A stretch of 64,000 bases of DNA from Lytechinus pictus (lineage: Eukaryota), in NCBI RefSeq assembly GCF_037042905.1, contig NC_087250.1, positions 16,370,001 through 16,434,000 of the forward strand, in the 5' to 3' direction. Both the position numbers and the translations under genes were made by a program. Below are positions 1 through 62,749 of this stretch, piece by piece. The notes under the pieces were generated by a model that saw only the letters and a list, made by a program, of their open reading frames with translations, was not told the origin of the DNA and searched no databases. The stretch's first letter is position 1, and every line of letters begins with the position of its first letter.

Positions 1-57
1 GTATCAGCTACCGACATGAAGTGGTAAAAACGAATGTCTGAGTGTCTTTCAGGCAGT

Positions 58-930
58 TCAGTAACGAGTGTGACCACCTCCTGCAGCAATAACGGCTTCA
101 CAGCGCTGTCTCATGGAGCTGATGAGGCGATTGATGTCTCTGACGTCCAGTGCATCCCATGCAGCCTCCAGAGCCACACCCAGCTGCTGCAGTCCAAGTG
201 GATGGGCTTCGAGCTGCTCGAGACTCCTCCCCATCATGTCCCAGACGTGCTCTATCGGGTTTAAGTCCGGGGACCTCGCTGGCCACTCCATACGCTCAAT
301 CCCCTGGCCCTCAAGGAACTCGGTCACCACCCTAGCTCGGTGGGCACGGGCATTGTCATCCATGAAAATGATGTTTTGTCCCACATTTTCTGCAAATGGC
401 ACCACTATAGGTTCAAGGACCTCATCCCTGTACCTCACTCCTGTCATTGCTCCCCCTGGGACCACGTAGAGACGAGTACGGTTGGCGTAGGTGATGCCTC
501 CCCACACCATGACGCTGCCTCCCCCATAACGGTCATGTTCTGCAATACAGGGGTCTGCAAATCTCTCTCCTGGTCGCCTCCAGACTCTCGAACGTCCATC
601 ATTGTGGTCAAGGGAAAATCTGCTCTCATCTGTGAACAGAACTCTACGCCATTGCTGTCTGGTCCATCTGACATGCTCCCGGGCCCAGTTGAGACGAATT
701 CTTCTGTGAGCAGGGGTGAGTGGGACACACTGAGCTGGCCGTCTGGCATGCATATTGGCTCTGTGAAGTCGGTTACGGATTGTTTGAGTGGAAACAATCA
801 CTCCAGTTGCTGCAGCGAAGTCATTGTTGAGGCGGCGTGCACTGTGAAAGCGGTTGCGGAGGCTGAGATTCGTCAAGTAGCGATCATCTCTAGGGGTTGT
901 CGAAACTGGTCGGCCACTGCGGGGTCTCTC
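58..930 (-). pseudogene. Tc1-family transposase (DD34E), N-terminally truncated
   Basis: Translation shows the GRP motif (RPRSGRP), the second HTH region (VSTQTIRNRL), FTDESRF, FMDDNA, WPARSPDLNPIE (34 residues between D and E) and the C-terminal GGHTRY. The first HTH and start codon are replaced by the inverted arm. Confidence 0.92.
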
Positions 931-933
931 GTG

Positions 934-1605
934 TGTGTCCCACTCACCCCTGCTCACAGAAGAATTCGTCTCAACTGGGCCCGGGAGCATGTCAGATGGA
1001 CCAGACAGCAATGGCGTAGAGTTCTGTTCACAGATGAGAGCAGATTTTCCCTTGACCACAATGATGGACGTTCGAGAGTCTGGAGGCGACCAGGAGAGAG
1101 ATTTGCAGACCCCTGTATTGCAGAACATGACCGTTATGGGGGAGGCAGCGTCATGGTGTGGGGAGGCATCACCTACGCCAACCGTACTCGCCTCTACGTG
1201 GTCCCAGGGGGAGCAATGACAGGAGTGAGGTACAGGGATGAGGTCCTTGAACCTATAGTGGTGCCATTTGCAGAAAATGTGGGACAAAACATCATTTTCA
1301 TGGATGACAATGCCCGTGCCCACCGAGCTAGGGTGGTGACCGAGTTCCTTGAGGGCCAGGGGATTGAGCGTATGGAGTGGCCAGCGAGGTCCCCGGACTT
1401 AAACCCGATAGAGCACGTCTGGGACATGATGGGGAGGAGTCTCGAGCAGCTCGAAGCCCATCCACTTGGACTGCAGCAGCTGGGTGTGGCTCTGGAGGCT
1501 GCATGGGATGCACTGGACGTCAGAGACATCAATCGCCTCATCAGCTCCATGAGACAGCGCTGTGAAGCCGTTATTGCTGCAGGAGGTGGTCACACTCGTT
1601 ACTGA
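934..1605 (+). pseudogene. Inverted duplicate of the Tc1 transposase catalytic (DDE) half
   Basis: CVPLTPAHRR...GGHTRY* is the same protein as on the minus-strand copy. It has no DNA-binding domain and no native start. Confidence 0.9.
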
Positions 1606-2190
1606 ACTGCCTGAAAGACACTCAGACATTCGTTTTTACCACTTCATGTCGGTAGCTGATACCCCTCGGGGCCCACTTTTCAGGATGTGCAGTGATGCGA
1701 GAGACATTGTGCAACAACTGAAACCACCCATGCGTGAAATTGATTACAGCGTGTTTAAGGACATTTAGGACAGTTGTACTGAGGTATTTCCAGAAATAAA
1801 ACACCTTGTATAAAATCTTTATGTACGTTTTAAAAAGTGGTCCTTAACTTTTTTTGAGTAGTGTATAATAAATAATTATGATATATAATGTAAAAAACTA
1901 TCACATAATTAGAATTTCATTTCAATTGGCCATTTTTTTCTGGCTCGCTTTTCTCGCTGGCAACAATATCCCACATTTTCTATATGTGCCACCTCAAAAT
2001 ATTTGGTGTATTATGCAACTGCATTGAAGTAATGTGTTGTGTAAATGATATACCTGGGATTTATTCTATAAGGTTTAAAATGGCTTCATATAAAGAGGTA
2101 ACAAGGGTTCCACCCCCGGACTCCACCCGCATATCACTAGCACACGGATGGAAGGGTTCTACAAATAAGAACAAAAAGAAAAGGATAGTA

Positions 2191-2618
2191 AAATTAAGAA
2201 TTTAATTCCAGCTAATGGAGCCAAATTTGGGCGCCCCAATTTGGGGGCGTCTGCCGGGGGGAGGGTGTCCCACTACTTAAAGTGTCAGTTAAAGGACACA
2301 TTCGAAGAATCAGAAGTATTTTATAATGATTTTATATGGTCATCATTGTAAAGGGGAAGTATTAATAATCAGATACATAACTTCACTTTTCAAAATAGTG
2401 ATCAGAGTTTGCAGAAATCAGCTCTCAAAAATGATTTATTTTCATGCCATATTTCTGCCTTCCACCGGTCCTCTTGCGAGCTCCAGCTGAGTGACGTCAC
2501 ACAATGAGCAGTGAGCAGCTGAGCTGACAGCAGACCTTTGGAGACGATCTTTCCAATCAGCGTTTTCTGCTCTTAGAAATTAAGAATTTCATTCCAGCTA
2601 ATGGAGCCCAATTTGGGC
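2191..2618 (+). repeat. Pair of ~42-bp direct repeats (2191-2232 and 2577-2618)
   Basis: AAATTAAGAATTT(A/C)ATTCCAGCTAATGGAGCC(A/C)AATTTGGGC occurs twice with 2 mismatches. Confidence 0.75.
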
Positions 2619-3828
2619 AATGAACATTTTCACATAAATATATATTTAACCAATGTTGAATGAATAACAATACATGTAGATTAAAGAGTGGATTGTATGA
2701 AATAATACTTGCCTTTTTTTTTTTAAAAGTAACGCTGTGTTGATGGTAACAATAATAATAGTTATAGGAAACACAGTCATGAATGATAATAGGTGGCGTC
2801 ATTTTAACCGTTCAAGCCCAGCATGAAGATCAACCTTTCCTTTAAAACACAGTTTTCAGTGACTTTTCACAAAATTAATGTAAGTTGTACGATGCATTAT
2901 GTTTATCATATTTGAAATTGCTTTCTGATCTCCAAAATATACATCGATATATATCCTAACTCGCTTAAAAAGGAATCAAAGCAAGTGAAAGGACACATGT
3001 GCACAAGTTGCACCTTCGCATCACCCGACCGGGTCGCCAGGCGATGGTGCGCCAGATCTTCCGGGTCGGGGATCGTGACATGACCCGCTGGTTATCGCGG
3101 TGTTTTATGTGGACGTACGTACACGTACACGTCGAGTGAAATCTAAAGTATTCGCATCTGCAGTGAACAATTAAGGGCAGACGACGACGTTCACTCGAAC
3201 GATCAGAGGACTGCTAGTACGTCGTTCACGTTCACTACTCCTAAAACTCTACAAAAATCACTCGACCATGCTGCCGCTGCGCGAAGATTACGTAACTTTC
3301 ACCGAAATTAACGCTACACCGTAATGACGATTTCGCGTTATTTAACTTCAAACGCAAGAGTGTATCATTATTGTTTGGTTATGGCATTCACGCCCAGTAA
3401 ATGAAGGGTGTGTACAAATTCCTGGATGGATGAAATTGGAACACAACCGATCGTTTGCTGAAGCTTCTGGAAGTAGCACCCGACACATCTTACAGGATTC
3501 AATCACAACGGAGGAAACATGGTAAATACAACTTGGCATTTAATACATCATACTAACGCAATTAAAATTTTTAATTTAACTGCATGTAGTATATTCTACA
3601 CCAAACAACAAAACAAAGATCTTGACATTACGACTGGCGCCCAAATATATAGTTTCATCAAGGGGCACGTAACATACTTGGAATGGCAATGTGATAAAAT
3701 GTTCTTTATACAGATATCAACTAATGGGGTATTAAATATAAAAAAAAAATTGGATCGCAAGATTTATATTTTCCCGAAGCGCGACTACCAATATACACCT
3801 TGCATCGTTATGATTCTCCGCAAGATTC

Positions 3829-6800
3829 ATGGGGCTAGCTGTATCAACAAGCCATCAGTTGCACCCAATCCAGCCTCAAGCTCCTCTCCAACGCGAATCC
3901 AGTCTCGCAACCCTCAGAATAGGTACTTTCAACTCAAGGGGGGTACACAGCAACAAAAAGTACATCTCTAATATTCTCAGTAACCTCGATATCCTATGCC
4001 TCCAAGAACACTGGCTAACCCCTATGACCTTAGATCATCTTGAACAGTTTAATAGTGACTTCTCAGTAATTTCCAAAGCCCATCAAGATGATACACCATC
4101 CCTAATACCAGGGAGAGGTAGAGGTAAGGGTGGTGTTGCTATCTTCTCACGTAACTCTGTTGCCAGTGTTGCCGAGATCAAATGTAACTCCCCAAGACTG
4201 CTTACTGCCCACATCCAGCTCAAATCAAGTGAGGAGAATATTACAGTCACAAACTGCTATTTACCCAGCAATACTTCACCAGGTGACATTGCTGAGTATC
4301 AGAACTGTCTCTGTACCATATCTGAAATCTTAACTTCTCATCCCCATCATGTCAACATAGTAGCGGGGGACTTCAATGCTGACATCATTAGCAGATCCAC
4401 AAAGAAACCAACAGTAGCAGTGCTCAAGGACTTCATTGCAGCAGAAAATCTTATATCTCTCAATGTCGAACACTGCACAGCCAGCGACTACACCTTCATG
4501 TCAGATGACAGCTCTAAGTGGTCCAATATAGATGGTTTCCTTATCTCCTCTAATACCTCGTGCCGCTTTCATACTCTCTCCATCCATGATGAACACCCAA
4601 TGAACACATCCGACCATCGACTAGTGACAGCCACCTTTAGTACAAATTCTGTTCATCCTAAAGGCACTAGTGACAGAGATGAGGCCTCAAGTTCCACGCC
4701 GCTGGAGCGTCTAAAGATTGATTGGCCACAAGATCATATTGAGGAAGCCTATACTCTCCCCCTGGATAGTGGATACACTATGTGCAGAACTTTTCCAGAC
4801 TCTGCCGTCATTAACTTCATTAACTTCGGATACAGCCTGGATTGACAAAACATTTGAAACTCTCAGTGAGTACATGATAACAGTATCACAATCACTACCC
4901 CACAAGCTACAGGTGCGTTTACCAACTGGAAAAAAGGAATGGACGGAAGAGGTCGCCCAATCATACAAACAGGCTCATAGGGCATGGATAGCTTGGAAGG
5001 CTGCACACAGACCCATGTACCCAAGACCTGAGTGGATAGCATACATCAGATCTAAGAAGCTTTTTCGCAGGAGCCTAAGGCAGTCCAGGGCTATTCTTCG
5101 TCATCGGACACACAAAGCAATAGAATTTGCCAACTCCAACAGCAACCCCTCTCTGTTCTTTAGGCTGGTTAAGGAAAACCGTAGGAAAGGGAAGTCTATG
5201 CAGAGTACACAATCATTGGACATTGGAGGCATTACATACAATGGCAAAAACATCATTGCAGGTTTCGAGGAGCACTTTAGGAACCTGGGGGCAGTACCTT
5301 TGAAGGATTACAACAACAGCTCTCCAAGGACACGGGATACTCCATTAGATAACTCAAGTACCCTTGTCCAATCAAAGGAAGATGTCTGCCCTATCTTCTT
5401 CACTTCCCGTGACCTCGATACTGCCATCTGCTCTCTGAAGAAGGGCAAAGCAAGTGGGGTTGATAACATTATGCCAGAACATGTCATCCATTCCGGCCCA
5501 ATCTGTCGTAGTCTCCTCCTTCTTCTGTTCAACGCGTGCATGGATTTGACACATATCCCCGAGCCTATGAAGCAAGCCCTTGTGTTACCAATACATAAAG
5601 GCAAGGGTAAGCCAACCAATGACCCATCAAGCTATCGTGGAATCTCCCTCACTCCAACCTTCTCCAAAGTACTTGAACTGCTTCTGAAACCCCATCTGGA
5701 AAGCTCTCTTCGAGACTCGAACATCCCTGATGAACTCCAGTTTGGCTTTCAAAAAGGTAGGTCCTGCATCTTGACCTCAGCATGCCTGCAACTGTCCATC
5801 GAGATCAACAGTAGCTACAAGAACTCTACCTACGTTGCTTTCCTAGATGCACAAAAGGCATTTGATTGTGTGTGGCATGATGGCCTCTTCAAGAAGATAC
5901 GTGACACCACTGTTCATCCTTCAATTGTGGCCCTCCTTGCATAATCTTACAAAGATGCTAATAGCAAGGTTCTTTGGGAAGGAAGAGCATCTAATTCAAT
6001 TCTACTGGAAAAAGGTGTGAGACAGGGTGCCATACTCTCACCATCCCTATACACACTCTTTATCGACAACCTGATAAAGACCCTCAAAGAGAAAGGTCTA
6101 GGATGCAGTTTTCAGGGGAGGTATACAGGTATAATCGTTCTCGCAGATGATGTAGCCCTACTTGCCTCCTCTGCTGTTGAGCTACAAGAGATGCTATCCG
6201 TCACCCATGAGTACACCAAGAGGTGGCAATACTCCATCAACCCCTCTAAAAGTGCTGTTGTTGTCTTCAATGAGAAGTACACCTCTCTTGACAAAAGGCA
6301 ACAATCTTCATGGATGCTGGCTGAGGGTCAGTCCATCAATAAGGTTTTACAACAGCCCCACCTAGGTATCACCAAGTCTTCAATGCGATCTGACCCTACC
6401 ATAGACATCATTGCAAGAGGACTTAGGACCTTTTACTCCCTCCATGGTGTCGGAGCGTATACATCGGGCCTATCTCCACACCTCTGTGCGAAGCTGTGGA
6501 CAGTATTCTGTGTCCCCAGGATGTTATATGGCTCCTCTATCGTCTCCTTAACATCCCACCAGGCTAACCGCATAAACATCGCCCAAAACCAGTTATTTAA
6601 GAAGATTTTGGGAATCCCTCAGAGTGCAGCGAATGAATCAGTGTTTCTTCTCACGGGCATTACCCCCCTCATGTCACAAGTAGAACTGGATAGCCTCCTC
6701 ATCATAGGTCAGCTAACATCATTATCTGAAGACCGCTTTGAGAAGAGGGCATTTGTACATGCTTCTATCCGCGGTGTACCCCTCGTGAAATCCTGGAACC

Positions 6801-7396
6801 TCCTTCTCTTCAAGTACAACCTACCAACCCTTCTCTGCCTAATTGAACACCCGATCCCATATTACAAGTGGAAAGCCATATGTAGGAAGTCCATCTATTC
6901 AAAAGTGCTGCAGGACACTACCAATGCCATTGCATCTAAGTCATCGCTGTCCTTTTGGAAAGATATTGACAGTCTCCCACCATCTTCTCTGCTATTTCCA
7001 GAAGGATTAGCCCCTCATCTCCGTAAGGCACAGATTATCAGAGCTCAGCTCCTCACCCAAACATACCCGACCCAGAAGCGTCTCTCAAAAATTGGCAAAT
7101 CCCAAACTGCCTCCTGCCTGCTATGCAAAGATGGTGATGAAGACACCCTTCACTTTATCTCCTCTTGTAGCCATCTACATTCTCAGCGAGTCGCCTTTAT
7201 GGCAAATGCCAACAAGATGCTGCCTGATTTGGGGATGAGTGCCAGTCTCCACATGGATGACCCTCTAGCATTTGCCCTGCAAATTCTCCTCCCAAACCAA
7301 GACCTCTCTGCAAACACTGTAAAATCTTTTACGACACTTGCCCTCAATTTCTTGCTGAAAATCCATATGTTTAGATCTTCTACACTTGAATCCTAG
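3829..7396 (+). pseudogene. LINE ORF2 (EN-RT) broken by one frameshift (~4763-4775) and one in-frame TAA (5942-5944)
   Basis: ORFs 3829-4845, 4718-5944 and 6017-7396 join into one ORF. The sequence after the stop reads SYKDANSKVLWEGRASNSILLEKGVRQG in frame. Confidence 0.88.
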
Positions 7397-43567: not shown

Positions 43568-46500
43568 TTCCCATAGGCTTTACACGTAAGCAAAACACGA
43601 GAATCTCAAATCCAATCTTGCAAGTGAAATACAGGCATGATCCCGGCATCTGATCGGAAAATGAAGGAACACTTCCGAAAGCTTAGAATCTCAGCTACAA
43701 CATTTTAAAAGCTCAGGGATAACTGACAAGAAAAAATGGAGATATGACTCACGAAATAAAGGAATGTAGTATCTAGTTTTGAGAAAAAGTCATGTCCCAT
43801 AGAGATTACACGCAAAATGAGTTAGTCCGGGTTATAATTGAGCAAGGTGCCACTTGGAGAAGGAGAAATTTTCATATAGTGCTTCTAGACCAGTGTTTTA
43901 CGCTGAATATGAATATATGAGGTAAACAGGCTGTATACTGATAATTAACCCGTGAGGACGCTTTTTTCAAAATGGCCGCCATCTTTTTATAAAATTTGAA
44001 TATTCGTACATAGATTTTTACATAAGCATCCAATTGCCATGGAATTAGTGTCATATGAAAGCCAATGAAATTTCCTACAATTTGGAACTATTTATAGGGG
44101 GAGATTTTGAGTAGAAAACTTCATTTTTTTGTATTTTTTCCAAAAAATTGGAAATTCTGTAAATACATGATTTTACATAATTCTAAGAAAAATGAATTAA
44201 TTACCTTGAAAAGTTTTTTAATATATTATTATTACATGGATGAAATTTCAACTCTGTATCATTTTTAAAGCAAATTTATAAGGTATCAAACTTGAATTAT
44301 TCAATATCAGAAATGTTGCTTTTTGTATGCATTTCCATAGACTAATACGTATAACATGTATAATACATGTATGTATAATGTATAGTTAAAACATGGAGCT
44401 ATTAAAAGAGCTGTTAATAGCTCTATGGTAAAACTTAAATGTAATTATGTCCGCTAGTTAATCACTTGCAGAGTTAAGAGTAGGCTTTTCTCTATCAGCT
44501 ACATAGAAGAAAATGTTGGCACATCGATGCTTAACATTTTCATGGGGGTGGGGGTTTCGAAGTCCCCCCCCCCCCCTGGCTATATCATGTTGTTGTATTT
44601 ATTTGAAAATCACTATTTTCTGAAGCACCCATTGAGGCAAAAGGCAATTCTGTTATACAGTACAGACACTTTAATTACTTTAAAACCACTTGGAGAGGAA
44701 AAGAGTAGGCTTTGTTCTATTTGTTCTACCAGCTACATCAAAAGAAGTATCACATCGAAGCCTACCCCTCTCGGGGGGGGGGGGGGGGTATGGAGGTCAC
44801 CCCTTCCCCTTTTGCTTATTGCTAATTCATTTGGAAATTCACAATTTTGGACCCAACATTGAGGCAAAAAAGCGTTTGTGCATTATAGTACACCCCATTT
44901 TATTGATTTGAAAGAGTATAGTTCGTTCTACCAGCTACATAAATAAGCGCACGCACATCGAACCCTAGCCCTCTCAGGTGCTGTCAAAGTCACCCCCACC
45001 CTCCTCTATATCATGTATATTGCCTATTTATTGAAAATTACACCATTTTAAATCACCAATTGAGGCAAAAGGGTATTTCTACTATATAGTACAGCCAATT
45101 TTATTTTCTTGCAATGACTTGGATAGGAAAGAGTAGACTTTGCTCCATCAGCTATATATTAACAAGTGCTGGCAAGTAAAAGCCTACCCCCTCCGGGATG
45201 CAGTTGAAATCACCCCATCCCTTTCGCATTATTGCATATTTATTGAAAAATTCACCATTTTGAAGCCCCCATTTAGGCAAAAAGGCTTTTCTGATATATA
45301 GTTCTTCCACTTTTACTGCCTTGAAACCACTTAGGGAGGAAAGAATAGGTTTTGCGTTATCAACCAATTATAAAGAAGTGCAGGCAAATAAAAACCTACC
45401 CCCTCCGGGAAGCTGTTGAAATCACCCCATCCCTTTTGATGGGGTTTTTAAACCCCCATTGAGGCAAAAAGTCATTTCTGATTACAACTCTGCCTTTTTA
45501 CTACCTTGGAACCACTTGGAGAGGAAACAATCATGGCAATAGGCTTTGCTCTATCAGCTACATACAAAGATGTGCTGGCAAATAAAAGCCTACTCCCTTC
45601 AGGGGAGTGTCGAAATTACCCACCCCCCTTGAAATTCACCATTTTGGAGCCCCCATTGAGGCAAAAGGGTATTTCTGATATATAGTTCTGCATTTTTTCA
45701 CCCTTGAAACCACTTGGAGGGAAAAGAATAAATTCTTTGCTTTAACAGCTACATATAAAGCATATCCCCATCAGAGGACTGTTGAAATCACCCCACCCTC
45801 TTTTCATTATTGCTTATTTATTGAAAATTCACCATTTTGGTGCCCCCATTGAGACAAAAAGGTGGTTTTGATATATAGTTCTGCCACTATTACCACCTTG
45901 AAAGAGTAGGCTTTCCTCTATCAGCTAGAAGCTAGATAAAGCAGTGGCTGTACTATATACCAGAAACACCTTTTTGCCTCAATGGGGGCTCGAAAATGGC
46001 GAGTTTTTCAATGAATTGGCAAAAATCGTAAAAAAGGTGGGGTTACAGCTATAGTCCCTGAAGTGGGTCAGGCGTCGATATGGCAGCAATTCATTATATA
46101 TAGCTGAAAGAGGAGAACCTACTCTTTGCTCTCCAAATGGTTTCAAGAAAATGAAATCGGTTTTTTTTATACAGCAGAGGTGTATATTGTCTCAATGGTG
46201 GCTCAAAATTGTGAATTTTCAAATAATTAGGCAATAATGCAAAAGGGGTGGAATGGTTTGACTGCCGCCCAGATGGGTAAGCTTCAATGTGCCAACACTT
46301 CTTTATAGGTAGCTGATAGAGCAAAGCATATTCTGTCCGCCTACTATTTCAAGGCAGTAAAAGTGGCAGAACTATATACATGTATCAGAGATTCTTTTAT
46401 ACCTCAATGGGGCTCAAAAATGGTTAATTTTCCAATAAATAGGCAATAATGCAAAGGGGAGAGGGGGTGATTTTGACAGCCCCCAGAAGGCGGTAGGCTT

Positions 46501-47233
46501 TTATTTGCAAACACATCTCTATAGCTGATAGAGCAAAGCCTATTCCTTCCTCTCTTAGCGGTTTCAAGGCAATAAAAGTGGCAGAACTATATATCTGAGA
46601 GGAATTTTGCTTCAATGGGGGCTCCACAATAGTGAATTTTCAACAGGTAGCCAAATACCGAAAATTAGTGAGGTAACTTTTACAGCCTGAAGGAGATAGG
46701 CTTCGATTTGCCAACACTTCTTTATATGGAGCTAATAGAGCTAAGCCTACTCTGTCCTCTCTAAGTCATTGCAAGTAATAGAATTTGCTGTAATCTATAG
46801 TAGAAACGCCCTTTTGCTTTAATAGGTGATCCAAAATTGTGAATGTCCAATAGATAGTCAAATACCGAAAATTGGTAAGGTAAATTCTACAGCCCGCTGA
46901 ACATTCTGAAGGGGATAGGCATTGATTTGCCAACACTTCTTTATAGCTGATAGAGCAAAGTCTATACTCTTTCTTCTCTAAGTCATTGCAAGAAAATAGA
47001 ATTTGCTGTACTCTATAGTAAAAACGCCCTTTTGCTTTAATAGGTGATTCAAAATTGTGAATGTCCAATAGATAGTCAAATACCGAAAATTGGTAAGGTA
47101 AATTCTACAGCCCGCTGAACATTCTGAAGGGGATAGGCATTGATTTGCCAACACTTCTTTATAGCTGATAGAGCAAAGTCTATACTCTTTCTTCTCTAAG
47201 TCATTGCAAGAAATTAAAATTGGCTGTACTATA

Positions 47234-48223
47234 CAGTGCGTATCAAAAAAAAGTTTACACTTTGAAAAAGCCCTGGGAATTAAAAAATATACAGCATGTG
47301 GGTAATTTTTTCACATATGATTATGGGTTTGGGTCTCATCTATCCAATGAAAGTAAAAGTTTTGACAGAATGTTACACTTGAGTGAGCACTGTCCATTTT
47401 TGTAAAGCTCGCAGAAATCTGTTTGCGCAGAAATGCTTGTTTTCACGCTGTGTCAAGGGGAAAGGGTGAAATCAAACTTACCCTGCGAAGCATTTTTCAT
47501 AAATTTCCTGGAGCACTTTTAGCCAATTGAAATAAAACGGATACATTCAAGCATTTTGTAACAATTTTGCCGCCCAAATTTGAAATTTCAACACTTAGTA
47601 AGCACAACATTTACCCTTTTTGTGTCAGCTGGATCTGAGTACATAACTGAATCTGAACAAAAGTTTATATCAGACATTTCCAGCATTTTTCACTTTCAAG
47701 TTTGTATCATTTAAAGTTGGTTTACATTTCATTTTCATTTAATACTTGTTTCTCCACAATTTTCCCAAGCTTGGAAATGATTAACAAAATGAAAATCAAG
47801 CCCAAGCCATTTCACGTAAATCACAGCTCAGTGTAAAGCAAATATCGTCACGATGGACTCGGTGTGTGGGGGAGTGGGATGGGGCGCAATGCACTCTTCG
47901 AAGTGTTTTGGGCGAGGAAACAAGTTTAAAAAGGTAAAAGATATCTTCATATCAATTTTACTTGCTAAGTTCCAAGAGTTCTTCATGATTAAGGTCTACT
48001 TTTATTCGCATAACTATTTCAAAGTTCTGCGCAAATCATTTTTTACCAACTTTTCAAAAGTAAGTGGTGCTCACTCAAGCGGAAATATTTTTCGACAGTT
48101 ATATCGTCATTTGCTTGAATGGATCTGTACCAATGCTAAAATGTGGAAAAATCGTCAGGATATTACAAATATATAATTTTACAGGATTTTTTCTAAGTGT
48201 AAACTTTTTTTTGATACGCACTG
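47234..48223 (+). mobile_element. Tc1/mariner-type MITE family A, copy 1 (990 bp)
   Basis: TIR CAGTGCGTATCAAAAAAAAGTTTACACTT and its reverse complement; TA TSD. Confidence 0.92.
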
Positions 48224-48357
48224 TATAGTAGAAACGCGCTTTTGCCTCAATGGGTGATCCAAAATTGTGAAAAATCCAATAAAATATGCATATACATGAT
48301 ATAGAGGGGGGGGGGGTTGACTTAGACAGGCGCTGAGAGGGATAGGGTTTATATATA

Positions 48358-49176
48358 CAGTGCGTCCCAGAAAAAACGAAACCGAGATTTATCGATGATT
48401 TATCATAACTTAATCACAAATACAATCGACAAATGACCTACCATTTTAAAGCTTAGAATCTCCTCTTTCATCTGGTATTACTTAGATTATTTTTTATGCA
48501 CGCATGAGTGAGCAAAAACAATTTGAAAAGGGGATACCAAAAAGTCACTTGGCGGGCCGTATCTGGGTTTTCAAAAGAAAACCAGATTTTTAAAAAGTCC
48601 AATATCTGCTCCTTAATTTGATACCTCAATTACAGAAAATGGTCAAGAAATAACAAAGTTCTGGTTATTTGAAATAAGGCTTGAATTTCAATAATTTCAT
48701 AAAATGAAGAGGTTTTACAGGCAAGCGTCCAAACTCACTCGACACTCCGTTTTGTTGACGATCAACCATGCATTAAGTCTTTTGTTACCGTGCGATAGCT
48801 TCTGTGGGAAACCGTTGAAAACACGTTTATTTAATGAAATTATGGAAAAACAAGCATTGTTTCGGGGGATCATAACTTTTTTACTTCTTGACCATTTTCT
48901 GTGATTAAGGTATCAAATAAAAGAGCAGATATTGAACGTTTTAGTCATGTGATTTTCTTTTTGAAATTCAGATACCCCCCGCCAAATGAGATTTTGACAT
49001 CCTTTCTTCGAATTGTTTTTGCTCACTCATGCGTGAATGAGGAATAATCTAAGTAATACCAGATGAAAGAGGATATTCTAAGCTTTACATTGGTAGGTCA
49101 ATTGTCTATTTTATTTATGATTAAATTATGATAAATCATCGCTAAATCTCGGTTTCGTTTTTTCTGGGACGCACTG
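48358..49176 (+). mobile_element. Tc1/mariner-type MITE family B, copy 1 (819 bp)
   Basis: Long TIRs starting CAGTGCGTCCCAGAAAAAAACGAAACCGAGATTTA; TA TSD in a TA run. Confidence 0.92.
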
Positions 49177-51265
49177 TATATATAGCTGATAAACTCTACT
49201 CTATTCTACTCTTTCCTCTCTAAGTGGTTTCAAATCAATAAAATGGGATGTACAACAAAGCACAAACGCTTTTTGGTCTAAATGTTGGGTCCAAAATTGT
49301 TAATTTTCAAATAAATTGGCAATATTAAGCAAAAGTTCTCCCCCCCCCCGAGAGGGGTAGGCTTCGATGTGCTACTTCTTTAGATAGCCTATTCTTTCCT
49401 CTCCAAGTGGTTTCAAAGCAATCAAAGTGGCTGTACTGTATAGCAGAAATGCCTGTTTTGCTTCAAATAGGCAATTTACAACAACATGATATAGCAAAGT
49501 GCAAGGGGGGGGGGGTGACTTCGACACCCCCACCCCCATGAGAGGGTCAGGCCTTGATGTGCCAACATTTTTTTTTTATGTAGCTGATAAAGAAAAGCCT
49601 ACTCTTAACTCTCCAAGTGGTTAAAAAGCGGAGATAATTGCATTTAATTTTAACTACCGGTAAACATTATACATACATGCATTATACATGTTATACGTAT
49701 TAGTCTATGGAAATGCATACAAAAAGCGACATTTCTGATACTGATGAATTAAAGTTTGATACCTTATAAATTTGTTTTAAAAAATGATACAGAGTTGAAA
49801 TTTCATCCACATGATAATAATATATTATTAAAGTTTTCAGGAATATTTCAAGGTAATTGATTCATTTTTCTTAGAATTATATGAAATCATGAATTTGCAA
49901 AATTTTCTATTTTTGGGAAAAAAATACAAAAAATGCAGTTTTCTACTTAAAATCTCGGCTAAATGACCTACTTATCCCCTATGAATATTACCAAATTGTA
50001 GGAAATTTCATTGGCTTTTATATGATAGTAATTTTATGGCAATTGGATGCTTATGTAAAAAAATATGTACGAATATTCAAATTTTATGAAAATTTGGCGG
50101 CCATTTTGAAAAAAGCGCCCTCACGGGTTAATTTTCAGGATACAGCCTGTTTACCTCATATATTCATATTCAGCGTAAAAAACTGGTCTAGAAGCACTAT
50201 ATGAAAATTTCTCCTTCTCCAAGTGGCACCTTGCTCAATTATAACCCGGACTAAGTAAAAATGACACGCCTTTATTATTTGCAATTTTTGAGGATGATCC
50301 GTTTATTAAAATGAATAATAAAGGCAATAATTCAGAAAAAGTAAGACCTAAGCTACAACATATCCAAAATTGGGTGAAAATCGACCAATATTCACAAATT
50401 TGAGCCAAATTTGCATAATTATAATGACGTCATAATACGCAAAATTGATATTTTGACTTCCGACGCCATTTTGATGACGTCATGATATAATTGAGGGTCA
50501 AATGAGACATGAAATTATATCTCTAATTCATACTCTATCAAAATATTAAAAAAATTGGGGGTACCCTTGCGTTCTGAAGAGCTACAGCGGATTTTCTATA
50601 GGCATGTTTTTGCCCATATATGGCCTATAGTGAGCGCTCGCGCGCACACGTGCTGCAAACTTAAACGGGTGTTGATTTCCTTATTATTGGTCGTAGAAGG
50701 TTGATTAAGGTACCAAATTGCTCAAAATTATATTATCAATGCAATGATATATATATATATATAAAAACGGTGTTTCTTAGTTGCGTTAAGGCGTTACGCA
50801 AATTTTTGCAATGCTTAAAATGACCTAAAACGTACTTTACTTCGGTCAAAAGGTAATTTTAAGCATTTTAAAATATTGACGTGCGCGTACGCGCGCGTCG
50901 TGAACTTCAGGTGACCTTTGATGACAAGACCTGATGATTCTTGACATGAAATTTATGTCATGTAAATTTGATTGATTTTTAATAATTGATAATGGAGATA
51001 TGATTGATAATGTGATTTTACAAAATGGCGTCTAGATGACGTCATCATAACTTGATGACCTTGAAAAGCTTATTTTGGCATTTCCATGACAGACCCTATA
51101 GATGACTTGAAATTCAATTAAATAGACACAGTCAAATTCGAGTTATCTTGGCGACAAATATATAGCCATTAAAAATAAATAATAAAAATAAAGAAAATTC
51201 TGACGAAATTAAGAGGTGATCTGTCATAGACAGACCACCTAAAAAATAAGGGGGCGACGAAAAAT

Positions 51266-54200
51266 TCAGACTTTATATAGTCGTTTCGTTCTGAGAACGA
51301 AACGGACCAGTACAGATTCGGTTTCTAACTTAGTACTCTTTGAGAGATCCATTATTTTTTTTTTTTTGGGGGGGGGGTTGATAGATTTGTTTCTGTAAGT
51401 AGCATGGCTCTCTCTATTATATATTTGGGACATTCGATTAAAAAAATGCTCAACTGTTTCTAATTTGTTAGGCCTACATGTATCACAAAGTCCCGTTGGG
51501 TGTCTTTTTAAATCGTAGTTCAATCCTATTACACCAAAACAGAGTCTGTGGATAATGGTTTCGTGGAATCTGATTAGGGAACAAAAAAGAGTAAAAAAAG
51601 AGTAGGCGTTGGGATTCATTCCATCTTTTTTTGCCAATCTAGAGTGTATCTTTTGAAAATGAGATGTTTTATTTCTGTTAGAGATAATTTGTTGTTGACT
51701 TCAATTTTTTTCTGCAATGCATTTTTTTGCTTTCGGGTCCGCCATCTCGTTTCCACTAATACCGCAGTGGCGGGGGATCCATTCAAGGTTTATGTCCATG
51801 CCTAAATATGTTAAACTTGTTGGTAGGGTAAGAATTTCTGAGACAAAGGGTATTCCTTTTTGTTCTGAAAAAGCTACTAGTAAGCTTAATGAGTCACTGA
51901 ATATTACTACTCCTACACATACATCAAGAGTTTCTAACCAGTTGAGGGCTAAGATGATTGCTGCTAGTTCAGCTCTATAAAGTGCGTTTAAAAAAAGTTT
52001 ATACTTAGAATTATATATTTGTAATATCCTGACGATTTTTCCACATTTTAGCATTGGTACAGATCCATTTAAGCAAAATAATGACGATATAACTGTCGAA
52101 AAAATATTTCCGCTTGAGTGAGCACCACTTACTTTTGAAGAGTTGGTGAAAATGATTTGCGCAGAACTTTGAAATAGTTATGCGAATAAAAGTAAACTTT
52201 AATCATGAAGAACGCGTGAAAATTAGTTAGTAAAATTGATTTGAAGATATCTTTTATCTTTTTAAACTTGTTTCCTTGCCCAAACACTTCGAAGAGTGCA
52301 TTGCGCCCCACCCCACTCTCCCACACACCGAGTCCATCGTGACGATATTTACTTTACACTGAGCTGTGATTTACATGAAATGGCTTAGGCTTGATTTTCA
52401 TTTTGTTAATCATTGCCAAGCTTGGGAAAAGTGTGGAGAAACAAGTATTAAATGAAAAATGAAATATAAACCAACTTTGAATGATAAAAACTTAGTGAAA
52501 AATAATGGAAAATGTCTGATATAAACTTTTGTTCAGATTCAGTTATGTCCTCAGATCCAGCTGGCACAAAAAGGGTAAAGGTTGTGCTTACTAAGTGTTG
52601 AAATTTCAAATTTGGGCGGCAAAATTGTTACAAAATGCTTGAATGTATCCGTTTTATGTCAATTGGCTAAAAGTGCTAGGGAAATTTATGAGAAATGCTT
52701 CGCGGGGTAAGTTTAATTTCGCCCTTTCCCCTTGACACAGTGTGAACAGATTTCTGCGAGCTTTACAAAAATGGACAGTGCTCACTCAAGTGTAACATTC
52801 TGTCAAAATTTTTACTTTCATTGGATAGATGAGACCCAAACCCATAATTATATATGAAAAAATTACCCACATGCTGTATATTTGTTAATTCCCATGGCTT
52901 TTTCAAAGTATAAACTTTTTTTGATACGCACTGTATAATGAAGTATAATCAGTGAGGCGTTTAGACTAGGAGAAATGGAAGGCTGGGACCTAAAAGGAGG
53001 CAGCACAGGCTCCAGTGACGGGTTCTTTTGATCCATCTGCGTAAATATGGAGTTGATTTGACCATTTTGAGTTAATAAGAACAAGGCTCTTTTGTTTTTT
53101 ATATAAAGGGTGGTCATGTTTATTCAATTCCTTGGTCAGTTCTACTGAAACCCTCGGGTGTTGAAAAAGCCATGGAGGAAAAGCATATATATATGATTCT
53201 ACAGAGTAGTTTATTTTTTCTGCTCTGATTCCAAAAGGTTTGGTATTTTTTTGAGTTTTGGATAAATCGAATTGCCAGCACGGTTTTATATTAAGCAAAG
53301 TTGGATGGTCTTCATGTGTTTCAATATTTGTTCTGAACTTATCTGTGAGTGCTTTTCTTCTCAGGTCGAGTGGCATTTCCCCGAGTTTAGCCTGTAGGGC
53401 TTCTAGCGAAGTAAGAGGGAGCCCTCCAACACAAATCCTTAATGCTTGATATTGAATTGCATCTAATTTTGCTTTCATTGTTTGGGATGCACTATTATAT
53501 GCCTCGCACCCATAATCCATTAGCGATCTTATTATTGCCCTATAAACAATGAGGAGAGATTTGGAGGAGTTTCCAAATGAAGTTCCAGTAAGGCTTCTGA
53601 GAATGTTAAGTTTCTTTTTACACCTTGTCACTATATCCTCGATATGGGCATGCCATGTAAGTCGGTGATCAAAAGTGACACCTAAAAACTTTTTAACACA
53701 GTTGAAAGTTAGACGATTGTCTCCAAGTTTTATCTCAGGGCAATTATTTTCGTGGGCCTTTGTAAATAAAACCAGAGCGGTTTAATCAGAGGAAAGACGG
53801 AAACCCCATTTATTAAACCATTCGTGTAATTTATTAAGATATTCTTGAATTTTTTTGAGGTTACATCTAATTGATTACCGGACATCTGGACTGCTATATC
53901 ATCTGCATAAATGGATGTGGTGACTGGATTGATGATAGGGATGTACCTCATCATGATATTATATAGTATGGGGCTAAATGTACTTCATGGTGGAAGTCCG
54001 TTTTGCATTACATCTATTTTTGATTCACTCTTTCCAATCGTAACTTGGAATGTTCTATTTGAAAGGTAATTGTAGATAAAAGTAAGCATTTTACCCTTTT
54101 TACCACACTGCAAAAGTTTGTAAATTAAACCTTTCATCCATAATCTATCGTAGGCCTTTTCTACGTCTAAAAATAGAGCCAAAGTATGTTCTCCATTGTA

Positions 54201-61900: not shown

Positions 61901-61925
61901 AAGAAAATGTTGAAAAAGGTGTATA

Positions 61926-62749
61926 CAGTGCGTCCCAGAAAAAACGAAACCGAGATTTAGCGATGATTTATCATAACTTAATCATAAACAAAATAGACAA
62001 AAGACCTACCAATGTAAAGCTTAGAATCACCTCTTTCATCTGGTATTACTTAGATTATTCCTCATTCACGCATGAGTGAGCAAAAACAATTCGAAGAAAG
62101 GATGCCAAAAACTCATTTGGCGGGGAGTATCTGAATTTCAAAAAGAAAATCACATGACAAAAAAGTTCAATATCTGCTCTTTTCTTTTATACCGTAATCA
62201 CAGAAAATGGTCAAGAAGTAAAAAAGTTATGATCCCTCGAAACAATGCTTGTTTTTCCATAATTTCATTAAATAAACGTGTTTTCACCGGTTTCCCACAG
62301 AAGCTATCGCACGGTAACAAAAGACTTAATGCATGGTTGATCGTCAACAAAACGGAGTGTGGAGTGAGTTTGGACGCTTGCCTGTAAAACCTCTTCATTT
62401 TATGAAATTATTGAAATTCAAGCCTTATTTCAAATAACCAGAATTTTATTATTTCTTGACCATTTTCTGCAATTGAGGTATCAAATTAAAGAGCAGATAT
62501 TGAACTTTTTAGAAATATGGTTTTCATTTGAAAACCCAGATACGGCCCGCCAAGTGACTTTTTGGTATCCCCTTTTCAAATTGTTCTTGCTCACTCATGC
62601 GTGAATGAGAAATAAACTAAGTAATACCAGATAAAAGAGGAGATTCTAAGCTTTACATTGGTACTGTAGGTCATTTGTCTATTTTATTTATGATTAAGTT
62701 ATGATAAATCATCGCTAAATCTCGGTTTCGTTTTTTCTGGGACGCACTG
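61926..62749 (-). mobile_element. MITE family B, copy 2 (opposite orientation, 824 bp)
   Basis: Same TIRs as 48358-49176; the central spurious ORF MKRFYRQASKLT... appears on opposite strands in the two copies; TA TSD. Confidence 0.92.

Follow-up and report, generated by a model that had tools for sequence, protein, structure and literature searches.

A young palindromic derivative of a DD34E Tc1 transposon in the genome of Lytechinus pictus

The first 1,863 bp of a stretch of Lytechinus pictus DNA (assembly GCF_037042905.1, contig NC_087250.1, positions 16,370,001 to 16,434,000; the whole analysed stretch of 64,000 nucleotides is called the window here) hold most of a fold-back Tc1 element. 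This element is probably a real, very recent and non-autonomous derivative of a young DD34E Tc1 family of about 1.5 kb, in which some 374 bp of the 5′ end were replaced by an inverted 3′ part through aborted gap repair and end-joining. The rearrangement is of a kind already known among Tc1/mariner elements, a precedent overlooked by the sequence-only reading that preceded this analysis; the present case is a very young example in which parent and junction alike are readable at single-base resolution.

A repeat search reproduced the reverse-complement arms claimed by that reading, at positions 1-730 and 933-1662, each 730 nt long and 202 nt apart. The arms agree at 729 of 730 positions, an identity far beyond chance. 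Exactly one substitution separates them, as had been noticed, and it is located at 472/1191 instead of about 474 and 1189. It is synonymous, with the Arg codon CGT in the left arm and CGC in the right arm. The portion of the left arm inside the window (1-730, minus strand) represents the 3′ half of the parent element, including transposase codons from about 120 to 342, the stop codon and the first part of the 3′ non-coding region. It adjoins 201 bp of single-copy parent coding sequence (731-931, minus strand) for the linker and second helix-turn-helix region, from codon 53 to about codon 119. The description of the spacer as transposase coding sequence continuous with the left arm is confirmed by a minus-strand frame running from 930 to 61, which stays open for 290 residues. 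However, the spacer of 202 bp is parent sequence only from 731 to 931. Base 932 is a T on the plus strand and belongs to neither parent neighbor, since in the parent 931 is followed by G and 933 preceded by A.

The right arm begins with coding sequence (933-1605, plus strand) for transposase residues 120-342, which comprise the whole DD34E catalytic domain and end at the stop codon. By tblastn, 223 of 223 residues are identical to P0002, an intact transposase returned by a protein search. Within this part lies the private synonymous substitution, a C at 1191 (plus strand), where four compared sequencing runs all have T. The coding part is followed by the parent 3′ non-coding and subterminal region (1606-1829, plus strand), which contains AATAAA at 1795 and is covered by parent contigs. 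A right terminal inverted repeat of about 34 bp (1830-1863, plus strand) comes next, followed in the window sequence by TA at 1864-1865, the target-site duplication expected at a right end. The inner limit of the terminal repeat is deduced from contig breakpoints by a 31-letter overlap logic: the parent contigs of runs X1 and X10 stop at 1859, and a 37-nt contig of run X15 spans 1830-1866. No further copies of the same Tc1 family were found within the 64-kb window.

The 290 stop-free residues score above the curated Pfam cut-offs for HTH_Tnp_Tc3_2 (PF01498) and DDE_3 (PF13358). P0002 is 342 residues long, and its last 290 residues are 100% identical to those of the window. A second protein, P0003, matches the window transposase except at 3 of the 290 residues, and a pair of sister proteins reach 88-90% identity. 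The catalytic triad consists of D153, D244 and E279 in P0002 numbering, with 34 residues between the last two, which corresponds to DD34E; the DD34E/Tc1 label is used here as in PMC7913693. With the triad, the Tc1-type helix-turn-helix and DDE_3 all present, the element is assigned by its sequence features to the Tc1 (DD34E) family of the IS630-Tc1-mariner group. The window residues form an exact suffix of P0002, in agreement with the earlier claim that the native 5′ end is absent. This is not an autonomous Tc1, as the 52 lost N-terminal residues include the first DNA-binding helix-turn-helix. HTH_38 scores on residues 3-40 of both P0002 and P0003, but on none of the frames in the window.

Searches of metagenome, viral and prokaryote sequences returned only distant relatives. 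An exact 22-nt spacer pattern had 0 matches in metagenome contigs, and a P0002 scan of viral contigs found 0 relatives among 8 candidate stretches. The same query matched 13 metagenome loci (28-44% identity) and, weakly, one prokaryote genome, none of which represents this Tc1 family. Self-comparison of these 14 distant loci gave no inverted repeat longer than 358 nt. At distant Tc1 loci, imperfect inverted repeats of 107-149 bp flank the transposase match, for instance at L001 (1-143/1306-1448), L008 (2185-2326/4323-4471) and L009 (2482-2587/3868-3971). At another locus, L003 (2499-2659/3259-3422), 164 bp of coding sequence recur in inverted orientation immediately upstream of the element.

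The parent arrangement was recovered from contigs of four sequencing runs (X1, X4, X10 and X15, out of 24 listed), which derive from other samples and were aligned to window positions 731-3500. In all four runs a single contig holds the parent order, spacer then arm, together with further 5′ sequence, and in all four it joins 731 to 933 on opposite strands. Positions 731-931 show no differences from the parent contig in X1, X4 and X10 and one difference in X15. Over 933-1859 the parent contigs of X1 and X10 differ from the window once, namely at 1191. At this base every one of the four runs carries the letter of the left arm, whose base 472 thus agrees with them at the mirrored place, so that the substitution is private to the right arm. 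This private substitution and the near-total identity to the parent contigs indicate that the element is very young. The parent contig of X1 is 1,498 nt long, made up of 927 nt, 201 nt and a further 370 nt beyond 931. If it is 4 nt short at each end, as it is at the right one, the parent would measure about 1,506 bp and the derivative would be without about 374 bp of the 5′ end. Judged by eye, the letters behind 931 in X1 and X10 encode P0003-type residues just before ERPRSG.

No contig crosses base 932 among the listed pieces of the four runs, a result that speaks neither for nor against the junction, given that contigs drop rare variants and that the runs are from other samples. In each run the depth of the bin 917-1009 is 92/93 of that of the neighboring bins. 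Among the pieces listed for these runs, none extends from the element into the flank seen here beyond a few bases. The parent is nearly identical over 731-1859 in runs of three differently coded organisms and in an echinoderm-metagenome RNA run, a pattern that hints at recent horizontal spread or at closely related hosts, with sample mixing also possible. Host repeats at 2405-2578 and 2793-3147 are well covered in X1 and X4 and barely covered in X10 and X15. Parent-family contigs are also present in an oligo-dT RNA run of another sample (X15), where DNA carry-over is possible.

The same contigs hold signs of a second, similar sequence, which adds depth over 1661-1753 in three of the four runs. 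In a contig of X10, a block like 1675-1742 (6 differences in 68, about 91% alike) is connected with the terminal 30 nt by a stretch of equal length but dissimilar sequence. In X15, a loose end has a related stretch, in mirrored form, ahead of 1266. The 1675-1742-like sequence and the X15 end at 1266 suggest an imperfectly mirrored left end of about 200 bp together with an internally deleted copy. As a lead, the left end of the parent may be an imperfect mirror of its right end over about 200 bp, which would favor a template switch. A sister family could alternatively be the source of the extra depth over 1661-1753 and of the contig signals in X10 and X15.

The right end and its TA are read within the window, and the left end lies upstream of base 1. 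The geometry of the right side predicts that the left arm extends 201 bp further upstream than base 1 and ends there in another terminal repeat of the right-end type. The full element would then be 2,064 bp long, with arms of 931 bp, a loop of 202 bp and two right ends. Of the earlier claim that the element has two copies of its right end, the two 3′ halves, the loss of the 5′ end and the non-autonomous character stand, and the second right end is a geometric prediction. Classical IR/DR ends were considered and rejected, as the internal stretches most similar to the terminal 34 bp agree in 11 of 14 letters and are inverted, not direct. In size the element departs from a strict MITE: 1,863 bp lie inside the window and 2,064 bp are predicted in total, against about 1,506 bp for the parent; the working definition of a MITE in PMC4161770 is under 1,000 bp.

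At the junction, base 932 can be taken for a 1-nt insertion; alternatively, the joint may contain a 1-nt microhomology together with one extra TG unit. Exact microhomology amounts to 1-3 bp, and the two joined sites are loosely similar, with about 7 of 10 letters shared by eye. A long shared word is absent, which points to end-joining or a template switch and not to homologous recombination or an overlap mis-join. One non-parent base combined with 1-3 bp of microhomology (by eye) is also the type of repair scar, a microhomology or a short insertion, expected of rearranged elements of the Rpmar17, Rpmar49 and Goblin type.

In the preferred model, excision of a parent copy would have left a gap for repair. 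Synthesis from the left side would have switched, at the terminal repeat common to both ends, to the right end of the template and copied 1,132 bp inward from there. Synthesis from the right side would have copied 931 bp, and the two aborted strands would have been end-joined at 931/933. The product would keep two binding ends without a complete transposase able to recognize them, and would at most hitch-hike on intact copies. A model of template switching plus end-joining has been proposed for Goblin (PMC3814204). The single mismatch between the arms fits a later mutation and equally well two different donor copies, and the route of formation cannot be fixed from one copy.

A deletion between two parent copies offers another, rather unlikely, route to the same structure. 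Two copies close together in opposite orientation, with their 5′ ends facing, could have lost both 5′ ends in an end-joined deletion, the route preferred for Rpmar49 and Rpmar17 in PMC4678618. Two donors would also account for arms that differ at one site. In a family of such uniformity, however, a single mismatch is too little to demonstrate two donors, and the C at 1191 was seen in none of the four compared runs. The deletion route moreover needs two events. A fold-back inversion without a second terminal repeat, produced by one-sided repair or by a partial nested insertion, would have left an immobile unit; the position of the left end outside the window leaves room for this reading, but the arm is still mirroring at base 1, which makes it very improbable. 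Fold-back chimeras have this shape and the arms are almost identical, yet an artefact, whether a chimeric molecule or an assembly mis-join, is the hardest reading to credit, as the junction offers no long shared word on which an assembler could mis-join and because a tandem array of 22 kb elsewhere in this window is resolved by the assembly, a sign that long reads were used. Aborted gap repair with end-joining remains the favored origin.

The rearrangement also created two open reading frames across the junction, each beginning with ATG and 356 residues long. On the minus strand (58-1128), 66 residues derived from antisense sequence and the junction are fused to transposase residues 53-342, without the N-terminal helix-turn-helix. 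On the plus strand (535-1605), antisense-derived residues are fused to the catalytic domain only. Both frames exist because the antisense frame of the parent is nearly free of stops. In register with the transposase, this antisense frame has 1 stop in 290 codons, with a stop-free run of 222 codons at 265-930 (plus strand) that is mirrored in the right arm. For comparison, antisense frames contain 11-19 stops in 264-336 codons at four distant Tc1 loci and 17-31 stops in 300-483 codons in the neighboring LINE. A crude model, which overstates CTA/TTA use, gives P = 6e-4 for such openness; with LINE codon rates the estimate is about 0.01. The open antisense frame is a trait of the parent. Its peptide has no match among the 121 proteins compared, and for the first 66 residues of the minus-strand frame, 0 of 1 candidates scored, within candidate lengths of 195-623 only.

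Selection for both junction frames was considered and rejected, because a spacer that is a multiple of three leaves a single condition for both strands to be in frame (about 1 in 9 overall), and because the open antisense frame was inherited unchanged from the parent. The two frames are probably incidental. The idea that inactive transposase may act by dominant-negative complementation has been described (PMC3878927), and as a side possibility the junction frames, if translated, might yield N-terminally crippled transposases that act as poison subunits.

The closest known counterparts are rearranged Tc1/mariner elements of insects. As in Rpmar17, Rpmar49 and Goblin, an inverted copy of the 3′ part has taken the position of the 5′ part, with the junction inside the element, as judged against the parent order in all four runs. 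Rpmar49, a mariner of Rhodnius prolixus, has terminal inverted repeats of 221 bp and was amplified to 13 insertions, and Rpmar17 comprises 227 rearranged copies with variable breakpoints, the longest exceeding 1,700 bp (PMC4678618). The Lytechinus element shares with both a replaced 5′ part, the long terminal inverted repeats with transposase sequence and the non-autonomous character. Both are DD34D mariners, mostly of 900-950 bp, whereas the present element is a DD34E Tc1 with predicted arms of 931 bp and is longer than its parent. The Lytechinus junction is known at one locus, unlike the amplified Rpmar49, and mobilization in trans is plausible by analogy with this precedent (13 insertions; PMC4678618).

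Goblin, which derives from the DD37E element Ozma of Aedes aegypti, is 213 bp long with 54-bp terminal inverted repeats and is present in 15 copies; its junction combines a 6-bp microhomology with a single inserted T (PMC3814204). Goblin and the present element agree in that unequal lengths of the right subterminal region meet at the junction, a single base is inserted, and template switching plus end-joining fits. The Lytechinus element differs in its exact microhomology of 1-3 bp and in arms that hold the whole catalytic domain. The rearranged Dromar7, Dromar11, Dromar28 and Dromar36 MITE sublineages of Drosophila likewise have one end that is an inverted copy of the other and unusually long terminal inverted repeats. 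They differ in that the 3′ part is replaced by the 5′ part, in their size of under 1 kb and in being multi-copy (PMC4161770). This opposite polarity is described for seven Drosophila sublineages (PMC4161770). The available portion of PMC5490172 contains nothing on a 5′-by-3′ rearrangement of this kind. By titles and the starts of abstracts, with subscription journals mostly uncovered, literature searches gave no paper on a palindromic Tc1 of a sea urchin or on an animal equivalent of Mu killer.

The remainder of the window holds repeats of other types. A near-complete LINE ORF2 lies at 3814-7393 (plus strand), with endonuclease, reverse transcriptase and a zinc-binding part in three stop-free pieces; it starts 2 kb downstream of the Tc1 derivative and points away from it. 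The tandem array occupies 22 kb (18837-40900) with a unit of about 238 bp in about 95 copies, a dimer period of 479 bp and longer-range repeats. A cluster of AT-rich inverted repeats extends over 43822-52922. An element of 742 bp occurs twice in opposite orientation at 96% identity (48439-49180 and 61922-62663) and is itself palindromic, with 367-bp arms at 84% and a 101-bp loop.

Fold-back copies of transposons can also be considered as sources of silencing RNA, and the sequence-only reading had proposed such a role by analogy with maize Mu killer. The analogy holds for the inverted duplication of transposase sequence. It does not extend to the ends, as both ends of Mu killer are the mudrA-adjacent TIRA (PMC3440606) and here the 5′ end is lost. 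Mu killer and the maize composite-insertion silencers of Ac/Ds (10.1101/2020.01.07.897926) resemble the predicted Lytechinus structure in being inverted duplications of transposase sequence bounded by two copies of one end, and the arms of Mu killer, at about 1.3 kb, are of similar size (PMC3440606). In the Lytechinus element the two ends are 3′ ends, and it is known from DNA sequence alone. In contrast, Mu killer is situated between host genes, is transcribed and has been shown to silence, although the hairpin read-through model for it is disputed within the same source (PMC3440606).

A read-through transcript of the present element would certainly fold, as had been claimed; the promoter to drive it, the transcript and small RNAs were not seen. 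Folding of a sub-stretch with 300-bp arms gave 299 pairs on the arm diagonal and -738.9 kcal/mol. An RNA hairpin of about 860-930 bp would be made only if a flanking promoter read through the element. By default, the element is a passive by-product and not a selected silencer.

A functional silencer similar to Mu killer or Ac killer, whose read-through dsRNA would give rise to small RNAs that silence the parent family in trans, is compatible with either repair or deletion as the origin and is unlikely. In its favor, codons 120-342 of the parent mRNA fall within the stem, and the sole canonical poly(A) hexamer in 1-1870 is the one at 1795 on the plus strand, near the far end, so that, by symmetry, a transcript entering from either side could include most of the stem. 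Read-through fold-back RNA is a described trigger for silencing of Tc1 in Caenorhabditis elegans (reviewed in PMC3878927), and inverted duplications silence Ac/Ds (10.1101/2020.01.07.897926). However, the 5′ region of the parent itself is gone, and downstream of the element only repeats are found (the LINE and the 238-bp array), the nearest LINE pointing away from it. The downstream scan covered 109 stop-free stretches of at least 70 aa, leaving aside the array at 18.5-40.5 kb, and would overlook short exons. Six of the 109 stretches were compared with Pfam, which returned LINE domains in 4 and nothing in 2. The parent-family contigs in the X15 RNA run also speak against such a silencer, with DNA carry-over as a possible source of them.

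A broader proposal, speculative and with the odds well against it, is that a young animal Tc1 family routinely yields mobile palindromes with two right ends, which are read through from host promoters into perfect hairpins of about 0.9 kb that silence the parent family. If true, Mu killer would have a counterpart in animals, one that the transposon family generates itself and that is mobile as well. The worked examples of transposon recognition found in the literature, where coverage of subscription papers was poor, are from maize. A direct test would come from a young family whose many mirrored copies differ in the limits of arm and loop, as hairpin-derived small RNAs should stop at the loop. 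Should such palindromes be transcribed and diced, they would matter for the question of how a host first recognizes a newly invading DNA transposon.
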